Assembly: GCA_963575745.1 (NCBI GenBank)
Contig: CAUYUJ010000292.1
Location: 62,001 to 126,000 of the forward strand
Length of the DNA stretch: 64,000 nt
Source: Prorocentrum cordatum
Lineage: Eukaryota
Reading direction: 5' to 3'
Part shown: positions 1-58,879 of the stretch, one piece after another
Position numbering within the stretch: the first letter of the stretch is position 1
Layout of the letters: each line of letters begins with the position of its first letter
Notes under the pieces: model-generated
What the model was told of the DNA's origin: nothing
Databases searched by the model: none
What the model saw: only the letters and a program-made list of their open reading frames with translations
Made by a program: the position numbers and the translations under genes

Positions 1-450
1 CCAAGGCGGGCCTCACAGTCTGCCAACTGATTTCCTTGAAAATCGAGGAAGCTCTCGTGCGAGTCATCCTTTGGCCCGCTAGCATGGGTTTTTACCTTGA
101 CGGCCTGGAAATCACCTTCCTGACTGAAGCTGTCCTGGATCTGGGCCCAGATTCTGCCCCAGAGGTCGGCGCGTGGCCTCCTAGGGCTGCAGCACCAGCT
201 GGGACCTCTACGGAGGCCTCGAATGACTGAACTGTTGTCTATCCCTACCCTCAGAGGCGGGTGAGCGCTATTCAGCAGCTTGAGCAGTCCATACAGCTCA
301 GCACGCAGGACGGAGGCTAGGCTACGCAGCCCTGGGAGGGCCCCCCGCATGGCCTTAACAGCCCCCCCGTCCTGGTCCAGGAATACGTAGCCCCAACCGA
401 AACTCTTGAGCCCTGGTGGGCCTCTGGCCGATCCGTCGGAGTAGGCCCAC
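1..450 (-). other. RNase H domain of ORF2 (absent from the ORF track because the frame runs off the window)
   Basis: Hand translation: WAYSDGSARG...FGWGYVF...VLRAELYGLLKLL...RVGIDNSSVIRGL...ADLWGRIW...VKVKTHA...GNQLADCEARL. The D-E-D-H-D residues are all present. Confidence 0.9.
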
Positions 451-1599
451 CCTGAGACCAGCGGGGGATTGACAAAATCGGGGTTCTCCTCCTCCAGGGC
501 AGAAATCCAATCAGACTGCGGGTCCTCCAGGGGGCGCTCGTGAAGCCCACGAAAGAAAAGGAGGGAGTCCGAGGTGGAGGATTCAGCACGATGCACGATC
601 CCTTGGAGGCCCTCATCCTCGGCTACGGTGGCTCTCGCTGCTCCTCTATCGGGGCAACAAAGGAAACGATGGTGCTGGCATCCGACTTCAGCGCCGCAGG
701 CTTGACAGGACCTGTCGTCCCCGAAACCCGCACGCCAGACCTTGTCCTGGGTCCAGAAGTCGCGGCCCATGTAGGCCAGGATAGCCGATCGCCTCTGCGG
801 CGATCGGTTAGCCTTCCGTCGAAGGAGAGCCCTAATAGGCTCAAGGAAGGGACGGGTGATCCCGAGGTCCCTGGAAGCCGCCCAGGAGGTCATCACCGCA
901 AATTCCAAACGGGACCAGATCAGCTTCTTAAGACACTGCGGTGCTGTCCTGCGCAACGCCCACTGCTGCCCGAGATGGTCGGAGAAAACATGATAGGCAG
1001 GCCACGTCCACGAGAGGAGTCTGAGTGTGGCCCAGACGGCTGAAGCGGGCCCTTTTATCTGCCTCCAGGGGTTGCTCCCAGGCTTGGCGGCAGCGGCCGC
1101 CGCGACAGCTCTGCGCCACCCCGCAGCCATGATCTCCTCATGGCTGCCAGCAAAGATAGCCTCCGCCCATTTGAGCAGTGGCTTCGTGCAGGCATCGACC
1201 AGGGGGTCGCAGCGCAGCGTCCACAGGCGGAGCAGTCGGTCCTTACCGATTGCGTTCCCGCCCAGCGCCGAGGCCATGAGCGCCCTTGCTCGGGTGAGCC
1301 GAGTCGGGTCCATTCCGAGGCAGACCGCCCCATACAGCACAGAAGGGGGAAATCCCATGCGCGCGACTTGAAAGGTGCGCGCGCCCTGCTTGCCTAGACT
1401 CGATAACTTACTTCTACGCCGCCTAGCGCTCCCCATTCTGGCATCGCCTCTGGCGCGCAGCGACACAACTCCTCCTCCCGCCGAGTCGGCTCCGAGCTGC
1501 GTGCTGCTGGTCTGGACCTCCAGTCCAAGGCTGCGGGCCCACCCTTTGATGCGGGCTCTCAAGGAGCGCTGCGCTGTCAGGATGAACCCCTTGCCCGTT

Positions 1600-2420
1600 G
1601 GCTTGTCTGGTCGGACCTGGAGACTGGGATCCCACGGGCCCCCATCACTTCTATATACTGAGTTGTGGCCGCATGCATCGAGGCCGAGACATCCGCCTCC
1701 GCACCTCGGGCCTGAATGCTTAAATCATCGACAAAAAGCTTCATCGGCAAGGCGGGGTACTCCTGCGCCAGCCCGTCTACGACTGACAAGATGGCTAGCT
1801 TGAGGCATCTCGTGCCCCCGCTGCTACCCGCAATGACTGCTGAGAATGTGGTGACCGAATGCACCGACACCACGCCGCGGAAAGAAACAAAGCGCCTGGC
1901 CGTGTATATCGAGATTAGAAGCTTCAAAAGTTACAACCGAAACTGGTGCTTGGGCGCCTCGGCCCAAAGCAAGTACATTGTGACATGCTCGAACGCCTTC
2001 TCTAGGTCTAGGACCGCCGTAGCCGTTACCTCACCAGGCTGGGCCCCTTCGTCGAACAACATTTGCTGCCAAATCGCTTCCTCTGAGCCCCCTCCTGGCG
2101 CCGCGAAGTCGTAGTCTCGTCGAATCTCCCGCTCCCAGTCATGGAGCTGATGCGAATGCGCGCGCTCCACCAGCCGCGCGGCCGTGGTGAGGAGGCCGAT
2201 GGGCCGAGTCCCCCCACCCTGCTTGGCCAGCAGGAAGTACATCACGTAGCGCAGCTGGGGGGCCACCTGGCCGTGCGCGACACGCATGCGACGAAGGCTG
2301 CCAGGAAGGCAAGCCCTTCGCCCCCCAAGCTGACGAACCACCTGGGGTGCCAGCTGTCTACCCCGACCCCCGTGTGCTCTGGGAAGGCCTTGCATATGGA
2401 CCTGATGTCGTCCGCCGTCG
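1600..2420 (-). other. Reverse transcriptase domain of ORF2
   Basis: TGVGVDSWHP, FLLAKQGGGTRPIGLL, VLDLEKAFEHV, AVIAGSSGG, and catalytic LFVDDL at about 1721-1738. Confidence 0.92.
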
Positions 2421-3329
2421 GCTCGACCATGCTATGCTCGAAAGTGGCCGATTCCCAGGGGCGTGGGAGCTCGCCTCGGCTCTGGGCGCCGTGAGAGGTC
2501 CAGAGGTCGATCCACTTCAGCGCCTCCAGGTCGACCGCGGCCTGAGGGCACGTCATGTCCAGGTTGGTGTGCCCTCGGGCCCCAAGCGCAGGGTCGACCC
2601 CCTGGCGCCACTTCGACATGCGGTGGACGAAGCCTGCACCTCCTTGTGAGCCGCCCTTAGCCCCTGGCGCCACGCCTTGGCCCTCTGGTCTCGGAGTCCC
2701 TGATCGATGACGTGGGCCTGCTGCGTGGCCCGACGCTGCAGCTCCATCGCCCTGGGGGCATCCTCCCAGAGCGCGTCGCCGTCCCAGGTGAGGTCGCCCA
2801 GCGCGAGGAGCTCGGCGTGCACCGCCTTGGCGTCGTCACCCAGCGCGTCGCACCAGCGGGCTGCCCCGTGGTGAAGGCGCCTGCGCAGGCGCCGCCACTG
2901 GTCGGCGTACGGCTGCCAGTCGCGCCTCTGACGGGCCGCCTGCGCCAGCCAGACGATGTCCCCGACACGGCTGGCCACCCAGCGCCATGCCCTGGAGCGC
3001 GTGGTGCCCCTGGGCCTCGCATGCGCCTCTGGGCCTGCGATCGGGGCTCTGGCCCATCGGGGGTGGCCCTGCAGGTCGTGGATGCCTCGCCGACGAGGTA
3101 GTCTGCCTCGCCGACGAGGTCGTGGATGCCCTGCAGGTCGTGCTCGGCCGCCGCCGAGAACCCCGCCCACAGCTCCTCCAGCTCGGCGTCGCTGTAGTTT
3201 GCTCCACTGTCGAGGATCGGCCATGCTGGAGGCTCCCGCCGACAGCCCACGGGGAGGCGAGTCGGGAAAGCCCGAGGCTTGACCAGCCTCCAGCCTAGCC
3301 GCTCCCGCAGTGACCTCTCCGTCGCGATG

Positions 3330-3997
3330 GCGACGGGGCTGTGCGGGGCGGTGGACGCGTCGAGCACCTCCGCTGCACCGAAGGCTGACGCGATACGCGT
3401 GTCTACCACGAAGTAGTCGATGACTCTTCCGCCCCCCGTGCCTTGGCAGGTGGGGGCGGCCGAGGAGAAGATGGTGCCCCCAACGTCGGCCACCCACCCC
3501 GTGGCCGTGAGCGTGTCGGGGGTGTTGTTGAAGTCAGCCTGGAGGACCCATGGGATGTCGTAGGCCCTCACGAGCTCGCCAATGGCGTCCAAGATGGACA
3601 GGTTGCGGACGGTCCAGCCCTCGGAGGCCCAGAAGTAGGCGCTGAGGACCATGAGGCCTCCTCGAAGAAACCCAGGGGCCCAGGCCGCCGCCAGCCTTCC
3701 TGGCGATCCTGGCGGCGGGAAGTCGAAGGTGTCCACGCCTTCGAGGTAGGTGAGGCCCACGCAGCGTGGGGCGACGATCCCCACCCCAGCCACTCTGCCG
3801 CCCCCTGGCCCCACCGCTGCGGGTGCGAGGGCGACGGTGAGGTGCCTCTGGAAACAGCTGGCACTAATCTCGCCGACGTAGTCGCTGGTGAGGCGGTGCC
3901 CCTGCACCAGCATGATGGCGTTTCTGCCCAGCGGCATCTCGTCCAAGTGGTCGACGAGGGTGCCCCAGGCGCTGCCGTTGAGGCCTCTGAGCACCAT
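3330..3997 (-). other. APE/EEP endonuclease domain of ORF2
   Basis: MVLRGLNG...IMLVQGHR...MVLSAYF...WVLQADFNN...RVIDYFVV...APHSPV. The metal-binding QE motif reads QG (GGG at 3900-3902, one transition from GAG). Confidence 0.85.
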
Positions 3998-4975
3998 GCC
4001 AGGCTTGGCGCGGCGCCCCTTGCCTCGAGATCTGGGCCTCCAGTGCCCCTCTCCCCAGCTGGGCTGCTTCGGCCACCCCCCCGTCGGGGGAGCCGAGCTG
4101 GGGGCGCTCGTGTCGAGAGGCGTCGACCACCCGCACGTCTGCGGCTCTCGGTCCCACGAGCACATCGCTGGTGGCATCGGCCACCCGCCTGTCGGCGGCA
4201 CCAGCGAGAGGGGCGCATGGGGAGAGGCTTCGGCCACCCGCGCATCCGCGGCTCTCCACTCATGCGCCACTGGGGCCTCTTCCGAGGCGTTTGTGGCCGT
4301 GTTCGAGGCTGTGCTGAGGTCCATGTCGGGCTTTGCCTTGCGCCCCTTGCCTCGCGGTCGGGATTCCCAATATTCCTCTCCCCAGCTGGGCTGCGTCGGC
4401 CACCCCCCCGTCGGGGGAGCCGTGCTGGGGGCGCTCGTGTCGAGAGGCTTCGACCACCCGCACGTCTGCGGCTCCCCGTCCCACGAGCTCATCGCTGAAG
4501 GCTTCGACCACCCGCCTGTCGGCGGCACCAGCGAGAGGGGCGCATGGGGAGAGGCTTCGGCCACCCGCGCATCCGCGGCTCTCCTATCATGCGTCACTGG
4601 GTCCTCCTCCGAGGCATCAGTAGCCGTAGTCGAGGCTGAGCTGACACCCATGCCAGGCTTGGCGCGCCACCCTCTGCCCCGTGACCGAGGCCTCCAGTAA
4701 TCCTCTCCCCAGCTGGGCTGCATCGGCCACCCCCTCGTCAGGGGAGCCGAGCTGGGGGCGCTCGTGCAGAGAGGCGTCGACCACCCGCACGTCTGCGGCT
4801 CTCCGTCCCACGAGCTCATCGCTGAAGGCTTCGACCACCCGCCTGTCGGCGGCATCAGCGAGAGGGGCGCATGGGGAGAGGCTTCGGCCACCCGCACATC
4901 TGCGGCTCTCCACACCTGCGCCTCTGGGGCCTCTTCCGTGGCATCCGTGGCTGTGCTCGAGGCTGAGCTGCCGCC
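3995..4975 (-). repeat. Three in-frame tandem copies of a 327-bp (109-aa) unit immediately N-terminal to the APE domain
   Basis: Anchor cagcgagaggggcgcatggggagaggcttcggccacccg at about 4202, 4529 and 4856 (period 327). Peptide RAADxRVAEASPHAPLSL.PPTGGW...QPSWGE..W...R.KP.M occurs three times. Confidence 0.95.
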
Positions 4976-5375
4976 CAGCCGTCGGAGCCACGGCGCGAGC
5001 TGCTGGCGGCGGAGCGTGTCCGCGCCCCTGAGCGCCCTCCGTGCCCAGGTACTCGAGGAGGAGCTGTCGCCGTCCCCGTCCAGGATGTCGAGGCCCTCCT
5101 CTATGGCTGGGACGTGGACGCACGTCCCCACGATGAAGGCGACCCGCTTTGGCCCAGGCTGCCAGCGCCTGCCCGCCCTTCGGGGCAGCTCCTTCTGGTC
5201 GGGCGGAGGAGGCGCCCCCCTTGTAGTGGTAGTGCTCGTAGAGGTGGTGGGGGTCTCCACGACCCCGTCGATGTCGTGAGGAACGGCTGGCGCTCCTCGC
5301 CCTCGCGCGGCAGCCTTGCCCCGACCGCGGCGTGGGCGCTGGCGCCACCGTCGCCAGCCTTGCGGGGCTGGCCCC

Positions 5376-6503
5376 TCAGTCGCTGGAGTCTGTGTCCGCC
5401 CCTGGGGGTTTGACGGCAGCCCGCTCCAGGATCCTGGCTCGGACGTCCTGTGCCAGCTCGCGCTTGGGAGTCCTGCCCGTGGCCCCCGCAGGAGCAGCGG
5501 TGCCTGCCGCGCCGCCTCCGCTGGCTGCAGCAGCGCCGCGAGCACCGTCAGCGCCAGCAGGGGGAGGGGTTTTTGGCCCCGCTGTGGGGGCTGCCTTGGA
5601 CGCGGCCGCCCCTGGCTGCTTGTAGTCTGCGCCACCTTTGCCTGCCGCCTTGCCTGCTGGCGCCGCTGCGGCGGGAGCTGCGGCGGCCTCTGGCGGGGGG
5701 GGCTCCGACCGAGCCCTCTTGCTCTTGAGCCTGTCGCTGAAGGCCTGGAGGTCCGCTCGCATCGCGGCGAGCCCCTCCGCCGTTGGGCCGAAGTGCCTCT
5801 TGACCTCCGTCTGGACCTGCTTGGCGAATTGGCCCATCTGCCCCTCGAACTGGCGGTGCTCCTCAGGCGGGATGTCGAGCCCCTCGAGGTCGAAGGCCTT
5901 GCCCGGCCGCACGCTGAGGATGTCCAGGTCGCCCTCGAGCAGCTGCGAGAGGTCCAGGGCTGGCGTGGGCTCCTCCACAGGCGCGACGGCCTTGGGCGCC
6001 GCTCTAGCGTAGGCCTCCTGGACCACCGCCTCCGCGTCGGCGACCTCGTGGATCCAGTTATCCCGCAGTTCCTTCTGGTCCTGCAGCCACCGCTCGCCCT
6101 CGGAGATGCTGTCGATGGTCCTCTTGAGCCCTGCCTCGGCCCTGCGGAGCCGCGCCTGGGCCTGGTTGAGGGCGACGTCTGGGTGCACCTCTGTAGTGTG
6201 CACTCGGGCAAGCGCCTCGAGGTGCTGGGCGGTCTCTGCGTCGCCGTCGGAGATGGTGGCCCGCAGCTGCTTGAGAAGCTCCTCGCGGTTCTGATTGACC
6301 GATGGGCGACTGCGGCCCCGCGAAGAGGCACCGCTGGGGCCCCAGGTGCCCTGCGAGGCTCGCTCTTGTGAGGTGGCTGGCTGCAGTCCCCTCTGGCACT
6401 TGTAGCACTCAGACCTGGCGACCCAGTTCCACTTATACCCACATCCCCTGCACTTCTCGTACTGGCTTCCAGTCCGCTGATCATCCTTCTCATTGCGCCC
6501 CAT
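5376..6503 (-). CDS. LINE ORF1-like nucleic-acid-binding protein, 375 aa (RanBP2-like C4 zinc finger, coiled coil, Ala/Gly/Pro-rich tail)
   Basis: First ATG after the SL (MGRNEKDD...). Motif CRGCGYKWNWVARSECYKC, helical heptad-like stretch ALNQAQARLRRAEAGLKRTIDSISEGERWLQDQKELRD, intact to the TGA at 5376-5378, and located upstream of the APE/RT ORF. Confidence 0.85.
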   Translation of the reverse strand: MGRNEKDDQRTGSQYEKCRGCGYKWNWVARSECYKCQRGLQPATSQERASQGTWGPSGASSRGRSRPSVNQNREELLKQLRATISDGDAETAQHLEALARVHTTEVHPDVALNQAQARLRRAEAGLKRTIDSISEGERWLQDQKELRDNWIHEVADAEAVVQEAYARAAPKAVAPVEEPTPALDLSQLLEGDLDILSVRPGKAFDLEGLDIPPEEHRQFEGQMGQFAKQVQTEVKRHFGPTAEGLAAMRADLQAFSDRLKSKRARSEPPPPEAAAAPAAAAPAGKAAGKGGADYKQPGAAASKAAPTAGPKTPPPAGADGARGAAAASGGGAAGTAAPAGATGRTPKRELAQDVRARILERAAVKPPGADTDSSD

Positions 6504-6671
6504 GCGCGGCCGTGAAGAACTGATATCCTGCCCAACCAGTACGGTACAGGAGCTCCTCGGAGCGTATACAAAATGTGAGGGCGCCTGCCTTGCCCAGCAG
6601 ACCCCTGATGCGCGGGCCGAGCCTGCTGGGCAGCCCCTTGGTCTCTGCAAACCACCTCGAGAAATGGTTTA

Positions 6672-6692
6672 CTTGAGCCAAAATGGCTACGG
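6672..6692 (-). other. Genomic copy of the dinoflagellate spliced leader (CCGTAGCCATTTTGGCTCAAG)
   Basis: Plus strand cttgagccaaaatggctacgg is the exact reverse complement of the invariant 21 nt of DinoSL (DCCGTAGCCATTTTGGCTCAAG). It is followed by TAAAC rather than a GT donor, so it is not an SL RNA gene. Confidence 0.95.
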
Positions 6693-6699
6693 GGCGGGG

Positions 6700-7335
6700 G
6701 AGAGGGAGGAGGAGGAGGAGGAGGAGGAGGAGGAGGAGGAGGAGGAGGAAGAGAGGAGGAGGAAGAGGAGGATGAGGACGACAAGACGGAGGCGGCTTAA
6801 CACTGCGAGCTTCGTCGCTCAGAGCCTGGCCACCGCAAAGACAGGGGGGGGACAGGATGAGGAGGGAAGGGAAGGAGGGGGAAGGAGGGGGAAGGAGGAG
6901 GAGGAGGACGGAGGGGGCGGAGGAAGGGAAGTAGGGAGATGAGAGAGAGGAAGGTATAGACGGAAGAAGGAGAGGGATGATAAGGAAGAGGAGGGGGGCG
7001 AGGGAGAGGCGCAGGAGGGTGTAGGGAGGAGAACGAGGAGGAGGAGGAGGAGGAGGAGGAAGAGAAGAGAAGAGGGAGGAGGCGGGAAGAACGGATGCGG
7101 AGGAGGTAGAGGGAGAAGGAGTGGAGGAGGAGCAAGCAGCAGCAGCAGCAGGAGGATAGGGGGAGGAGGACGCGGAGCAGGAGGAGAAGGGAGACGGAGG
7201 AGGGACAACGCGGGAGGGGGATGAGGAAGGAAAGAAGAAGCGGGTGCGGGAGGGGAACGAGAGCATTCAAACGAGCGGGGATGGGGAGGAGAAAGCAGAG
7301 GGGGAGGAGGAAGAGGAGGGAAACGAGGAGAAGGA
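6700..7335. repeat. Degenerate (GGA)n purine-rich microsatellite
   Basis: Visible gga/gag runs with a short unique island at about 6780-6845. Confidence 0.9.
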
Positions 7336-54789: not shown

Positions 54790-57260
54790 AAAAAGAACTA
54801 TGCACATACACCGATGTCTGGCCAGGCCAAGATCGGTGCATGTGCATAGTTCTCTTCGCCCGATCCAGGTAGAGCTGCCTGGCATCGTGTCTGCGCCCAG
54901 TTGGTCACAGGAGCGCCAGGGGGGACCCAGCCTGCACACGTGGGTCCACGACACTGCCCAGTGCAGGTACGGCACGCAAGCGTATGTTCCAGGCAGTTGT
55001 CGCAAGCAGGCCTCAAGCTAGTGAGATGTCTTGAGGAAGCACATCGTTCGATGGCCAACAAATCTGGCATCGTCTGCTCCAGCACAGCTGCAGCAAGGCA
55101 ACTGCAGCAGATTTCAAGGGCCACGGGACAGAGATCCAGGTTAAGCTAGTGGCAGCCGATCTAGGTATCGACAGAGGCAGAGTGAGCGCTGCACGTCCCA
55201 AGCAGTCATCCCGCCGTGTTGCGGCTGCCCGCAGGCTCACTAGAGTGCAGAAGCTTTCCAAAGACAACGTGTTGTGCAAAAGATGGGCCAAGAAGATGGC
55301 CCTGACTGCCGTCTTTGCCAAGTCGCGTTGCTCTGACAAAAGTTCATGGCACTGCTCCCCACGTCGTCCTGAGGTAGAGGAGGGCGTTGGGTCGTATGTC
55401 TGGTGGTGTCGCTAAGGGGGGAAGGTGCCTCACTACGTTGCTAGCGCTAGAGTACGGTCGGAGGGACCCAGCTTTCCTTGCCCTATTCGATACCATTGAA
55501 GCCTGGTTCTTGATTCTCATTGACAGGACCTTCCACGCCGATAGAATCCGCAGGGCCTGGAGGAAAGTGCTAGCCAACCTTAGGGACAAGCCTGCCAGAC
55601 ACCGTTGGCGAGGAGTCGCCACCGCAGTCGCTGCCACCATCGCTACTCTGCTCGACCTCGGATGGGAACCTTGGGGGCCGTGGGCGTGGGAGAGCGACCT
55701 GGGGGAACGGCATGCCATTAACGAATCTCTCCTTGGCAGAGGGAAGGTTGCCCTCGCCGAAATCCGAGAGGCGATTGCTGAGAGTTTAGAAAAGAAGTTG
55801 TGGATGGGCGCCGCCGAGAACTCTTGGAATGGCCACGGACTCGAGATGGTCCCTGACCTGTTTGATGTTCGCAGGGATCTGAAACGTTGTGCCAAGAAGG
55901 GCAAATACGCTTGGGCGAGAATATTTAAAGCGGTTGCCACGGGCAATAGCTGGACCGGGAGTAGGATACAGGAAGGTAACACTTCTGAGGGTAGCACCTG
56001 CCGCAGATGTGGCGACGTTTTCGAGTCTGACGTGCACAGGGCTTGGGGCTGCACTGAAAATGCCAAGTTCAGTTAATTGTTGATTTCGTGGTGCGCAGAG
56101 ACCTCGCAGATGCCGAGAGCACTCCCAATGTTTGGATCCGAGGGCTCACGCCCAAGTCCTGGACTGCAGTGCCCCCACCACCTGATGCTCCCGACTTGCG
56201 TAGGCTTGGAGGTGAGTTTGTGGAGGCGGTGGTTGGAGGCGTTGTTTTTGGAGGTGGCGATGCGAGTGGCGGTCGCGGGTGGCTGTGCGAGGCCTAGACA
56301 ACGACGGACGCTATACGGCCGAAGGCCTCAGCATGCACGCCGTTGCTTTTGGCAGCGTGCGAGGATCACGCCAGTCAGTCAATAGAGAAACCCTGTGCCG
56401 ACGTGAGTTCGCACGCGCGATCGTTCCCATTGCTAGCGCCTACTTTGTCACGGACTCGTCATATGTTGTCAACCACCTTGCCAAGATCAGGGCTGGGTTG
56501 GAACCCGAGTCTCACCTTGATGTTTGGCACCAGTTGCGTAACCCTCTGCAGCAATACACGAACGGGGTCTTGTTCTGGCGAATGTAGAGAGCCACAAAGA
56601 AACCCAGCATGTTTCGTCGAGTGGCTCAGACCAGTTGCATTTGTTATTAAAGCCGCTGCCGACAGTATAGCCAAATCGTGGGCCGACCCCAAACGGGCCC
56701 CTGAGAAGGATAGGGCCAACCGCTCCTTCGCCCAAGCAAATGCGCATCAGGTCAGGAGCCACCTGGGGATAGGGTGCCCCGAGAGAAAGCTGCGCGGCGG
56801 AAACTTCACGAGCACAAGATCCAGTTTGATCTCACTGCTCATACGCCTAACTATGGTCTGCGGTCGAGGATCCAAGGTAAAGTCTGTGGAGGCTCTGCAC
56901 CGCGAGCTTTGGCTCGCAAATTGTTGCGCACCCCTTGCCACGTTTGGCTCTTGCATGGGGTTGTCATGATTCCGTGAGCGCCCACTGCCAACGGGCAACA
57001 GCTCCAAAACTCCCACCAAGATCGATTTTACAAGAAGTGGTGGAATACTGTATGTTGTAAATGCGGTTTCATCTCGGTTCTCGCCGTGAGAAATTTGAAG
57101 CGCCAACGCCGTGTTTTTTTGAGCGATTACGGCAAGCGCATGCTGAAGAAGGTTGCCAAATGGCAACCACCTGGCCGCAGAAATTGGGCCAGAGAACAGG
57201 TGGCCAAGAGGCTACTCAAGTGATTGTACAGATATGGTACGTATTGCCTGGAGCGAATTA
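54790..57260 (+). pseudogene. Decayed 5'-truncated LINE: RT C-terminus, zinc knuckle, RNase H
   Basis: LHTWVHD (degenerate xxDD), ADLGID, RWRGVATAVAATIATLLDLGW (cf. PWRQIKGPASAVWATLRLLSW in the first LINE), CRRCGDVFESDVHRAWGC, GGDASGG, RQSVNR, VTDSSYVV, DVWHQL, AADSIAK; many stops and frameshifts. Confidence 0.8.
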
Positions 57261-57582: not shown

Positions 57583-57969
57583 TTACCAAAGAGCGTCTGT
57601 TGAAAACGTCGAAGAAATCCAGGAACGAAACACAAACGACCGACATAACTGCTGACGGTTCATTACGTGGACGAGCCGCGTTCCTGTACTCTGCCGTTTT
57701 CCTGTGGTCCACCGTGGTGGGCGCCGACGTCGCGGCGCGAGCGCGCCTGCCCGTCGGGCCCCTGCCCCCCGGATGCGCTGCAGCATCGCCGGAACCATCG
57801 CGGCAAGGCGCACCGCAAGCTCCTCGCCGCCATCGCCTCCGGCTCGCGCACGTTGCGCCGAAGCCACGACGCACCTGCAGGCCGCAGCGACCGCCGCTGC
57901 AACCGCCTGGCGACCGCCTCCGCCCTTGGCGGCGCCCATGGCCGCCGCCTCGACGAGAGCAGCCCCCAT
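57583..57969 (-). pseudogene. SL-headed retrocopy ORF (128 aa, MGAALVEAAAMGAAKGGGGRQAVAAAVAAACRC...), product unknown; probably only the first about 80 codons belong to the retrocopy
   Basis: First ATG lies 46 nt downstream of the SL copy; Ala-rich helical N-terminus; base composition changes at about 57710. Confidence 0.45.
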
Positions 57970-58015: not shown

Positions 58016-58037
58016 CTGGAGCCAAAATGGTTACGGA
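58016..58037 (-). other. Second genomic spliced-leader copy (TCCGTAACCATTTTGGCTCCAG, 20/22)
   Basis: Plus strand ctggagccaaaatggttacgga; two substitutions relative to TCCGTAGCCATTTTGGCTCAAG. Confidence 0.85.
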
Positions 58038-58879
58038 GGTCTGCCAAACTGGTATGCCGTTTTGCTGTGGTCTGCGGAGCTGGTCCGTCGTCCTCGCATT
58101 AGTGGCACTTGACCCTGTTGGTCGCGATGATGCTGCCGCCCCAGAACCTGGCCGTGACGTCGGCCTTTGTGAGCACAACTGCCATTTTTGCCTCGGACGT
58201 GGTCTCTGCAGCCACGTGCCCATCGCGGTCCTCCCGTTGGCCCTAGTCGCCTGGCTCCGAACTCGGCGAGAAGCGGGCCCTGTTCGCCTGACGGCCTGGT
58301 TCCCGTCCCAGAGGGTCGCACTGAGCGCTGCCATTCGCTGTCGCCCTTCTTCTGCGGTCCTCCACCTCGGCCCCAACTGTTTTCTTCCTGCGCGCTGGCA
58401 CGGCAAACGCAAGATATTATCAACGTGTCCGACGCGGCGCAACGTCGAAGGCGCGGGTCAACGGGCCTTCCGCGCCCAACCGTTGTTCTGAAACGGCCAA
58501 CGCTTAAGCCCAAATGGCCACAGACTTCGGGTAAGGAAAAGGGCACAACTTCGCGTTGGCACACAGGGAAACCGATTCCGCGAAAAATGCTGGCACCTAC
58601 GGGTGCTTACTTGTAGGAAGAAGGACAGTCCGCTGGTCTGGCGGCTATATTGTCACCGCCACCGAACAGTCGCCGCCCCATCGCCGCACGTCGTTTGGGC
58701 CGGACCACCGATATGGCGAGCATGTTGTCGCCGTCGCCGCACCGTCGCCCGCCACGTATTTTCCAATTTTACATGTTATAATTTAAAACAAAAATTACCC
58801 TTTGTTTCGAAATACAATTTACATGTGGTTTTGCCCCTTATCGTCCATCCTAAATACGAATTCAAACCATCCCAAGCGA

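Follow-up and report, generated by a model that had tools for sequence, protein, structure and literature searches.

The stretch examined here (64,000 nt of Prorocentrum cordatum; GenBank assembly GCA_963575745.1, contig CAUYUJ010000292.1, positions 62,001 to 126,000; hereafter the window, with positions counted from its first letter) carries on its minus strand a long interspersed nuclear element (LINE) whose 5' end is a DNA copy of the dinoflagellate spliced leader (SL; DinoSL). We consider it fairly probable that this copy, which is dead but complete at its 5' end, belongs to a multi-copy family of dinoflagellate non-long-terminal-repeat (non-LTR) retrotransposons and arose by reverse transcription of the mature, trans-spliced mRNA of the element. 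Dinoflagellate retrogenes are known to acquire SL relics in this way, and in the best reading of the results the same route is here applied to an autonomous LINE.

The spliced leader at the 5' boundary

Along the minus strand, CCTCCCTCTCCCCCGCC, CCGTAGCCATTTTGGCTCAAG and TAAACC follow one another directly as flank, DinoSL and leader of the first open reading frame (ORF1). The segment CCGTAGCCATTTTGGCTCAAG at 6692-6672 is identical to the invariant DinoSL 21-mer at 21 of 21 nt, while 100 dinucleotide shuffles of the window gave no match to it, even with up to three mismatches; a chance match is excluded as its source. The variable first position of the SL (6693) is C rather than T, A or G, so that 21 of the 22 SL nucleotides are present. 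The original prediction had placed the 21 invariant nucleotides exactly between a (CCT)n tract and a 168-nt AUG-free leader, and both the match and its position were confirmed, the latter by direct reading. It had also pointed to AG dinucleotides in the TAG at SL nt 4-6 and in the terminal AAG, and these were found at nt 5-6 (G at 6687) and at the SL end (G at 6672). From 6693 to about 7100, i.e., upstream of the SL, (CCT)n-like pyrimidine-rich DNA abuts the SL. Because tracts of this kind are found repeatedly elsewhere in the window, at about 10-42 kb, the tract is local genomic context; the pyrimidine tract behind which the original prediction had placed the AG acceptors is part of the flank and not of the element.

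SL RNA genes are described, in passages of two publications, as genes in which ...CAAG is immediately followed by a GT or GC donor and which are often arrayed or located beside 5S rRNA (PMC6616646, PMC12584245). Since the SL at 6672 is directly followed by TA rather than by such a donor, it does not represent an SL RNA gene; neither a GT/GC donor nor a short intron follows the SL exon there. No SL array was present in the window, the other SL matches being decayed single sites 51 kb away, and an Rfam scan of 6300-7000 detected no RNA family, including no SL family match of any kind. What was found is the arrangement of a DinoSL-tagged retrocopy, with a near-complete SL in the same orientation 168 nt before the ATG of ORF1. 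As the SL stands at the 5' boundary and no GT/GC donor comes after it, a trans-spliced RNA would be the simplest origin of the copy; this origin, which had been proposed from the exact boundary position of the SL, is well supported by the sequence. The perfect state of the SL is no sign of selection. At least about 11 variant sites, among those listed, in about 1,500 nt differ from every aligned contig of the family (counted by hand), and with a private divergence of about 1%, a 21-mer would be intact about four times out of five.

The leader at 6671-6504 contains no ATG, which would be expected by chance in about 15% of cases at such a base composition (estimated by hand), and has AG dinucleotides at 6656, 6645, 6553 and elsewhere. 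A hairpin begins at the last G of the SL; the fold of 6640-6693 had z = -2.65, with 4 of 200 shuffles folding as well, and the hairpin was also seen in the fold of the whole leader. Truncated relic SLs in the leader were considered and rejected as not above chance, the two best stretches being reached by 1050 and 248 of 2000 shuffles; for DinoSL-tagged retrocopies as a class such relics are optional. One of these two stretches (6575-6560) lies just upstream of the place to which a second SL junction maps in other copies (see below).

Family copies, proposed cycle and alternative explanations

Contigs of four public sequencing runs from four studies (X1, X2, X5 and X6) were aligned to 5200-6760 at an identity of at least 88%; the contig detail extends to 14 of the 27 loose ends and to 32 of the 215 pieces, 6689-6760 was masked as repeat, and contig depth is no copy number. 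The region was covered by 134 contigs in X1, 20 in X2, 41 in X5 and 20 in X6, with identity classes spread from at least 99% to below 90%, and this spread marks the family as multi-copy and of mixed age. The bin 6631-6683 had depth in all four runs. One X6 contig (record 32) extends over 6571-6688 with four differences and no gap and joins the leader to 17 SL nucleotides, which falls short of the 31 letters per side needed for a formal bridge. The fall in depth beyond 6684 was rejected as an element boundary because of the masking. Moreover, two X1 contigs follow the window to 6542, after which come 11 other letters and then an SL stretch of 19 nt. This second junction maps to about the place of an AG in the window (6554-6553), i.e., about 118 nt further in than the junction at 6672. 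This is probably a second site at which the SL was spliced onto an RNA of the family and then copied into DNA, which would make the capture recurrent. Because the SL-proximal part of the leader occurs in contigs of four runs and a second junction in one of them, a recurrent capture of the SL in the family, rather than a single accident, is moderately supported and seems probable.

Other contigs share only the head of the window copy. Among the ends listed, five X1 contigs share the window down to 6655 and three down to 6645, as does one X2 contig down to 6645, before other sequence begins; both break points adjoin AG dinucleotides. The piece common to them is the SL plus 17-27 nt, including the 11-bp hairpin, and the X1 depth is doubled over 6631-6683 (218, against 100-106 in the two preceding bins). 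The partners of this piece may be diverged subfamilies, products of a donor-like GAG/GT in the leader, or a longer leader from an SL-like gene, for which parts of PMC6616646 offer some precedent. The pattern of SL plus 17 nt had no matches in the genome_contigs or viral_contigs collections.

Under the preferred reading, the sequence shows that the RNA of the element acquired the 22-nt DinoSL through trans-splicing, as the host's other nuclear mRNAs do, and that the element's own machinery reverse-transcribed the mature RNA to its 5' end. The SL thereby became part of the DNA, where it makes up the first 21 nt of the copy and adjoins flank DNA unrelated to it. The capture would recur in the family, and a second junction, at another AG of the leader or close to one, would occur in other copies. 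An element starting with the SL could not rebuild its 5' end from an internal start site; new full-length RNAs would then have to come from transcription started upstream, e.g., by host read-through in long unidirectional gene arrays, and be trans-spliced at an AG that coincides with the old junction or precedes it. The terminal AG of the SL sits exactly where the original acceptor AG had been, and re-splicing there would restore the same RNA. The reasoning behind such a promoter-free cycle of transcription and trans-splicing is sound, and the cycle appears plausible. The further proposal that the LINE family as a whole has no promoter of its own, with the terminal AG of the SL recreating the acceptor in each copy, and copies inserted in long transcribed arrays of the host being excised from read-through RNA, re-capped with a new SL and re-copied without change of the 5' end, is tentative, and we would regard it as possible rather than expected. 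Alternatively, within the promoter-less reading, the integrated SL itself could direct initiation. In Ascaris, the SL directs the initiation of its own gene. The SL and hairpin forming the head of the diverging contigs would then be a portable 5' module, a counterpart of the trypanosomatid Pr77.

Keeping a complete 5' end is a central problem for LINEs, and the usual answer is an internal promoter. The SL-headed dinoflagellate LINE suggests another answer, in which transcription and trans-splicing by the host make the 5' end of the element. Dinoflagellates are thought to have little control at the promoter level, long unidirectional gene arrays and very frequent retroposition, and a host-made 5' end would fit this supposed mode of gene expression. 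If true, the element would be a concrete candidate for the reverse-transcribing machinery behind thousands of SL-tagged retrogenes; if SL-headed copies are only dead ends, it would be an ordinary instance of a known process.

Previous studies bear on this question in both directions. In favour, the Gene Ontology class 'RNA-dependent DNA replication' was over-represented among genes with upstream DinoSL relics, as stated in part of Song et al. (2017; PMC5585692). Reverse transcriptase (RT)-bearing units with an upstream SL were thus already counted there, and are not described as such in the parts available. On the other hand, a bioRxiv preprint on two Symbiodinium genomes, in the available parts of its text, treated retroposition and retrotransposition as independent and reported no overlap between the functions enriched in genes with SL relics and in RT genes (10.1101/783902). 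Several of our own results also weigh against the reading or its extension to a cycle. The window copy is dead, as its frame changes at least four times, stop codons interrupt the frame at 2659-2657, 2434-2432 and 1933-1931, and QGH replaces the QEH motif; active copies cannot be judged directly from it. The second open reading frame (ORF2) runs off the left edge of the window, and the 3' end, the tail and the target-site duplication lie outside. Tandem relics (SL followed by CCATTTTGGCTCAAG), as expected from re-splicing at the internal TAG, were not above chance in the leader, and the pyrimidine tract upstream of the SL, as part of the flank, is a property of the insertion site. The second junction was seen in only two short contigs of one run (X1). 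Copies that run upstream without the SL may exist among the 13 loose ends and 183 pieces outside the contig detail or behind the masked 6689-6760. The diverging contigs (eight in X1, one in X2) could point to a 5' module of other origin.

Among the alternatives, the one that survives best is that SL-headed copies are dead-end by-products. Master elements with an outron and a promoter would be trans-spliced at a fixed acceptor, their SL-bearing daughters would be promoterless, and the SL would be no more than a tombstone. This is an unlikely explanation, although one to be taken seriously. It agrees with the thorough decay of the window copy and with the SL relics in the leader being not above chance, which leaves no sign of a second cycle, as well as with the variants of ORF1, which are distributed 12/9/12 over the codon positions at the 33 sites listed, without an excess at third positions, so that most look neutral. 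However, no contig among the 14 of 27 ends listed runs from the leader into a common upstream sequence other than the SL, the two different SL junctions would require two acceptors in the masters, and a family losing its promoter with each jump would possibly hang on few masters.

The alternative that the first 39-49 nt (the SL with TAAACC...GAG or ...GCAG) are one module from elsewhere, the element proper starting from about 6654 or 6644, seems rather improbable. The module could be a long leader from a variant SL-like gene with a lost donor (GAG/GT is found 17 nt further on), or it could stem from a template switch of the RT with an SL-type small RNA. The break points of the diverging contigs and the AG dinucleotides beside them, the doubled X1 depth and the tight hairpin into which the stretch folds all favour such a module, and SL-like genes without donors, together with tandem-SL genes proposed to donate longer leaders in one splicing event, are described in parts of PMC6616646. 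Against it, the diverging ends are visible only as a consensus of 30 letters, and those at 6655 resemble by eye the window leader with insertions and deletions and may therefore be diverged subfamilies. The depth argument is limited by contig depth being no copy number, and so long a leader is not described in the available parts of the cited papers on dinoflagellate SLs. Even with a module of this kind, the copy would still derive from an SL-bearing RNA.

An artefact, i.e., a chimeric assembly at the low-complexity tract that joined cDNA-like or unrelated reads, or else a chance match, is very improbable. The junction does adjoin a simple repeat, where assemblies often break, and the join of flank and SL is without independent confirmation owing to the masking of 6689-6760 in the contig comparison; but chance is excluded by the shuffles, the join of SL and leader is also present in contigs of other runs, and the bin 6684-6736 had depth in all four runs (15.8, 0.2, 0.95 and 4.28). 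Finally, the position of the element next to an SL sequence could suggest that it inserted site-specifically into an SL RNA gene or an SL array, as SLACS/CZAR/CRE or NeSL-1 do. This is extremely unlikely: the SL is whole on one side and not split, it lacks a following donor or intron, its flank is microsatellite-like instead of an SL or 5S array, no RNA family was found around it, and the endonuclease is of the apurinic/apyrimidinic endonuclease (APE) type.

SLACS/CZAR/CRE of trypanosomatids and NeSL-1 of C. elegans are specific for SL RNA genes, in which they insert within the SL exon, and their endonuclease is restriction-like, with no APE domain known. They resemble the present element as non-LTR elements linked to an SL sequence in a trans-splicing host, but here the endonuclease is APE-type, the whole SL is present at the 5' side only, no donor or intron follows and the site is microsatellite-like. 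This contrast had been drawn in the original prediction and is correct as far as tested, the APE-type domain being present and the SL unsplit. DinoSL-tagged retrogenes reportedly go back to Slamovits and Keeling in 2008, as recycled processed cDNAs. For host genes, it is known or has been proposed, in passages of several papers (PMC7245778, PMC5585692, PMC6050394, PMC12014239), that retroposed genes carry DNA-encoded SLs, that re-splicing uses the AGs of an integrated SL and that the SL may serve as a promoter motif; for example, the TTT(T/G) of the SL was proposed in part of Song et al. (2017; PMC5585692) as a promoter motif keeping retrocopies alive. As described in parts of PMC5585692 and PMC7245778, these retrogenes share with the element an SL DNA copy directly upstream of the transcribed unit, derived by reverse transcription of a trans-spliced mRNA, and an AG, either within the integrated SL or at its end, that was proposed as the acceptor of the next round. 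They differ in that here an autonomous element supplies the copying machinery and has the SL as its own 5' terminus, and in that this locus has no tandem relics above chance.

In the L1Tc/ingi elements, according to parts of PMC1874656 and PMC8190864, Pr77 is an internal promoter giving abundant unspliced transcripts and is a 5' module in several kinds of elements. These too are APE-type LINEs in an SL trans-splicing host, and their common short 5' module is a possible parallel to the head of SL plus 17-27 nt; the internal promoter, on the other hand, is the opposite solution, whereas the 5' module here is the host SL itself. SymbioLINE of Symbiodinium is likewise a group of two-ORF dinoflagellate LINEs with the RT in ORF2 (de Mendoza et al. 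2018; PMC5890265, in part), but its ORF1 is a cytosine methyltransferase, while the present ORF1 has no known domain. 'Spliced leader' and 'dinoSL' each occur zero times in the available text of PMC5890265. A LINE with an SL as its 5' end was not found described in the main texts covered by full-text searches, nor in the available parts of PMC5890265 and of the 2024 review PMC11453091. A further comparison is offered by chimeric retrocopies of the U6/L1 type. There, a LINE RT makes the retrocopy and, by template switching, joins a small nuclear RNA sequence to it on the 5' side. The likeness lies in the small nuclear RNA sequence on the 5' side; however, a switch to the SL RNA would bring its intron, and here the SL ends at the exon boundary with no GT/GC next to it.

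Coding regions, class membership and decay

The positions of the features are given in Table 1.

Table 1. Features of the SL-headed LINE and its 5' flank in the window.
Feature	Position	Strand	Basis
5' flank, (CCT)n-like, low-complexity	6693..7100	-	direct reading; recurrence at about 10-42 kb
DinoSL DNA copy, 21 of 22 nt	6672..6692	-	exact match, 0 expected; followed by TA
Hairpin, 11 bp with 4-nt loop, starting at last SL G	6647..6672	-	RNA folding
AUG-free ORF1 leader (5' untranslated region), 168 nt	6504..6671	-	direct reading
ORF1, 375 aa and stop (ATG at 6503, stop at 5378-5376)	5376..6503	-	frame supported by codon-position GC
Three tandem units of about 327 bp (109 aa each), 86-89% alike	3986..4978	-	self-BLAST and translation
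APE-type (Exo_endo_phos) endonuclease of ORF2	3104..4015	-	tblastn of relatives
Reverse transcriptase, in two frames	1613..2649	-	Pfam RVT_1, tblastn, motifs
C-terminal part of ORF2: linker, Cys/His knuckle, RNase H	6..1613	-	phmmer and alignment to relatives

Over the three codon positions, the GC content of ORF1 (0.72/0.56/0.80) follows the pattern seen in the endonuclease frame (0.67/0.55/0.85), which supports the ORF1 frame as coding. The predicted protein has an N-terminal C-x2-C-x11-C-x2-C motif, a middle part that appears helical by eye, and an Ala/Pro-rich tail. It had no Pfam family at E<0.01, no relatives in a protein search restricted to lengths of 206-657 aa, nothing similar among the 158 retrieved proteins related to ORF2, no usable match in the ESM Atlas, and was not found in the metagenome_contigs or genome_contigs collections. 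Translations across the SL and leader (160 aa, then 80 aa) gave no protein matches, and the translated SL was absent from all 158 retrieved relatives of ORF2.

The claim that the element combines an APE-type endonuclease, RT and RNase H with an ORF1 was borne out by motifs, alignments and the relatives P0034 and P0062, the two of five relatives scanned that pass the Pfam cut-offs for Exo_endo_phos, RVT_1 and RNase_H. Long relatives align at 4015-3104, 3062-2931, 2649-2260, 2254-1613 and 1613-6 in frames -1, -3, -2, -1 and -3, respectively. The endonuclease part of the window is 42% identical to P0034 (E=1e-44), and the aligned part of P0034 passes Pfam Exo_endo_phos, while the window's own endonuclease piece had no Pfam match. 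Where the window copy has the Gly of QGH, five of the six aligned relatives have the Glu of QEH. The RVT_1 match to the window (E=1.7e-6, 28.3 bits) is just below the cut-off of 29.6, and the RT motifs RPIGLL (2206-2189) and FVDD (1735-1724) are present on the minus strand. The C-terminal region, which can be aligned with the parts of P0013, P0034 and P0062 that Pfam assigns to RNase_H, contains a Cys/His knuckle (707-693) and the RNase H motifs DGS (443-429), RAEL (305-288), D (245-228), H (92-78) and N..AD (35-18). An Exo_endo_phos endonuclease N-terminal to an RT with a Y/FxDD motif (here FVDD) places the element among the APE-type LINEs; the RNase H after the RT narrows the choice of clade only loosely. 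A long direct repeat of the element was not seen within the window. The tandem units at 3986-4978 are open in the endonuclease frame and form an N-terminal extension of ORF2, and nothing similar to the 109-aa units was found among the 158 retrieved relatives.

With the C-terminal 520 residues of ORF2 as query, phmmer retrieved 1250 relatives at E<=0.001 among 1.84 billion representatives. Neither the ORF2 C-terminus nor a six-sequence alignment had matches in viral_contigs, and a search of metagenome_contigs for the relative P0151, whose listed source is JGI/IMG, gave no match. Seven of the 20 source-checked relatives (P0014, P0076, P0084, P0088, P0102, P0045 and P0104) are labelled Pyramimonas sp. 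CCMP1952 in EukProt and are 49-90% identical to the window, and this green-alga label clashes with the dinoflagellate leader. Mixed material or a problem with the label could possibly be the reason. Close EukProt fragments of ORF2 were considered as evidence of expression and rejected, because the EukProt data set may not be RNA.

Other spliced leader sequences in the window and in viral contigs

Matches to the last 15 nt of the SL occur three times in the window against 0.13 expected, which indicates that the source organism retroposes DinoSL-bearing RNAs into its genome. Besides the SL of the element, the same (minus) strand has two decayed SL-like sites, one at 58016-58036 with 2 of 21 nt mismatched and one at 58503-58517 with 2 of 15. 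They are about 490 nt apart and lie upstream of an ATG near 57960; this pair is probably another retrocopy, with two generations of SLs. An ORF2 fragment of a second, distantly related LINE, comprising a linker and a Cys/His knuckle, was found on the plus strand at 55342-56165 (best E=6e-10 to P0128). Around the element, from about 7000 to 42000, there are tens of kb of low-complexity, triplet-like repeats with a purine/pyrimidine skew.

In the viral_contigs collection (IMG/VR), the exact 21-nt DinoSL was found at 119 stretches (L001-L119), corresponding to 134 distinct sites, mostly in contigs of giant-virus bins (e.g., GVMAG-M-3300023179-82, GVMAG-M-3300023174-52 and -43, and GVMAG-S-3300013131-116). 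Nearly all sites are in AT-rich DNA and many follow recurring AT-rich motifs. An A directly precedes the SL at 127 of the 134 sites, which gives the full 22-nt SL. Downstream sequence of 600 nt or more is available for 120 sites; at 99 of these, an ORF of at least 100 aa starts from the first ATG, which follows the SL at a median distance of 47 nt, compared with 156 of 1767 random positions. DUF4116 repeats, an ABC ATPase and CCCH fingers are among the products of the downstream ORFs. These look like genes, possibly of dinoflagellate giant viruses, that encode the host SL at their 5' ends; no title or abstract on such genes appeared among the 15 papers listed by one literature search. When 103 ORF2 relatives of at least 500 aa were compared by tblastn with the 119 loci, no LINE relatives were found beside the SLs. 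Tandem SL copies about 50 nt apart are present in contigs of giant-virus bins (L024, 6001-6121; L064, 4200-4269). A 5319-nt IMG/VR contig (L067) starts exactly with the DinoSL and has a 779-aa ORF with a viral RNA-dependent RNA polymerase domain (RdRP_1, E=4.8e-7); it would represent a transcript, capped with the SL, from an RNA virus of dinoflagellates or from an endogenous copy of such a virus.

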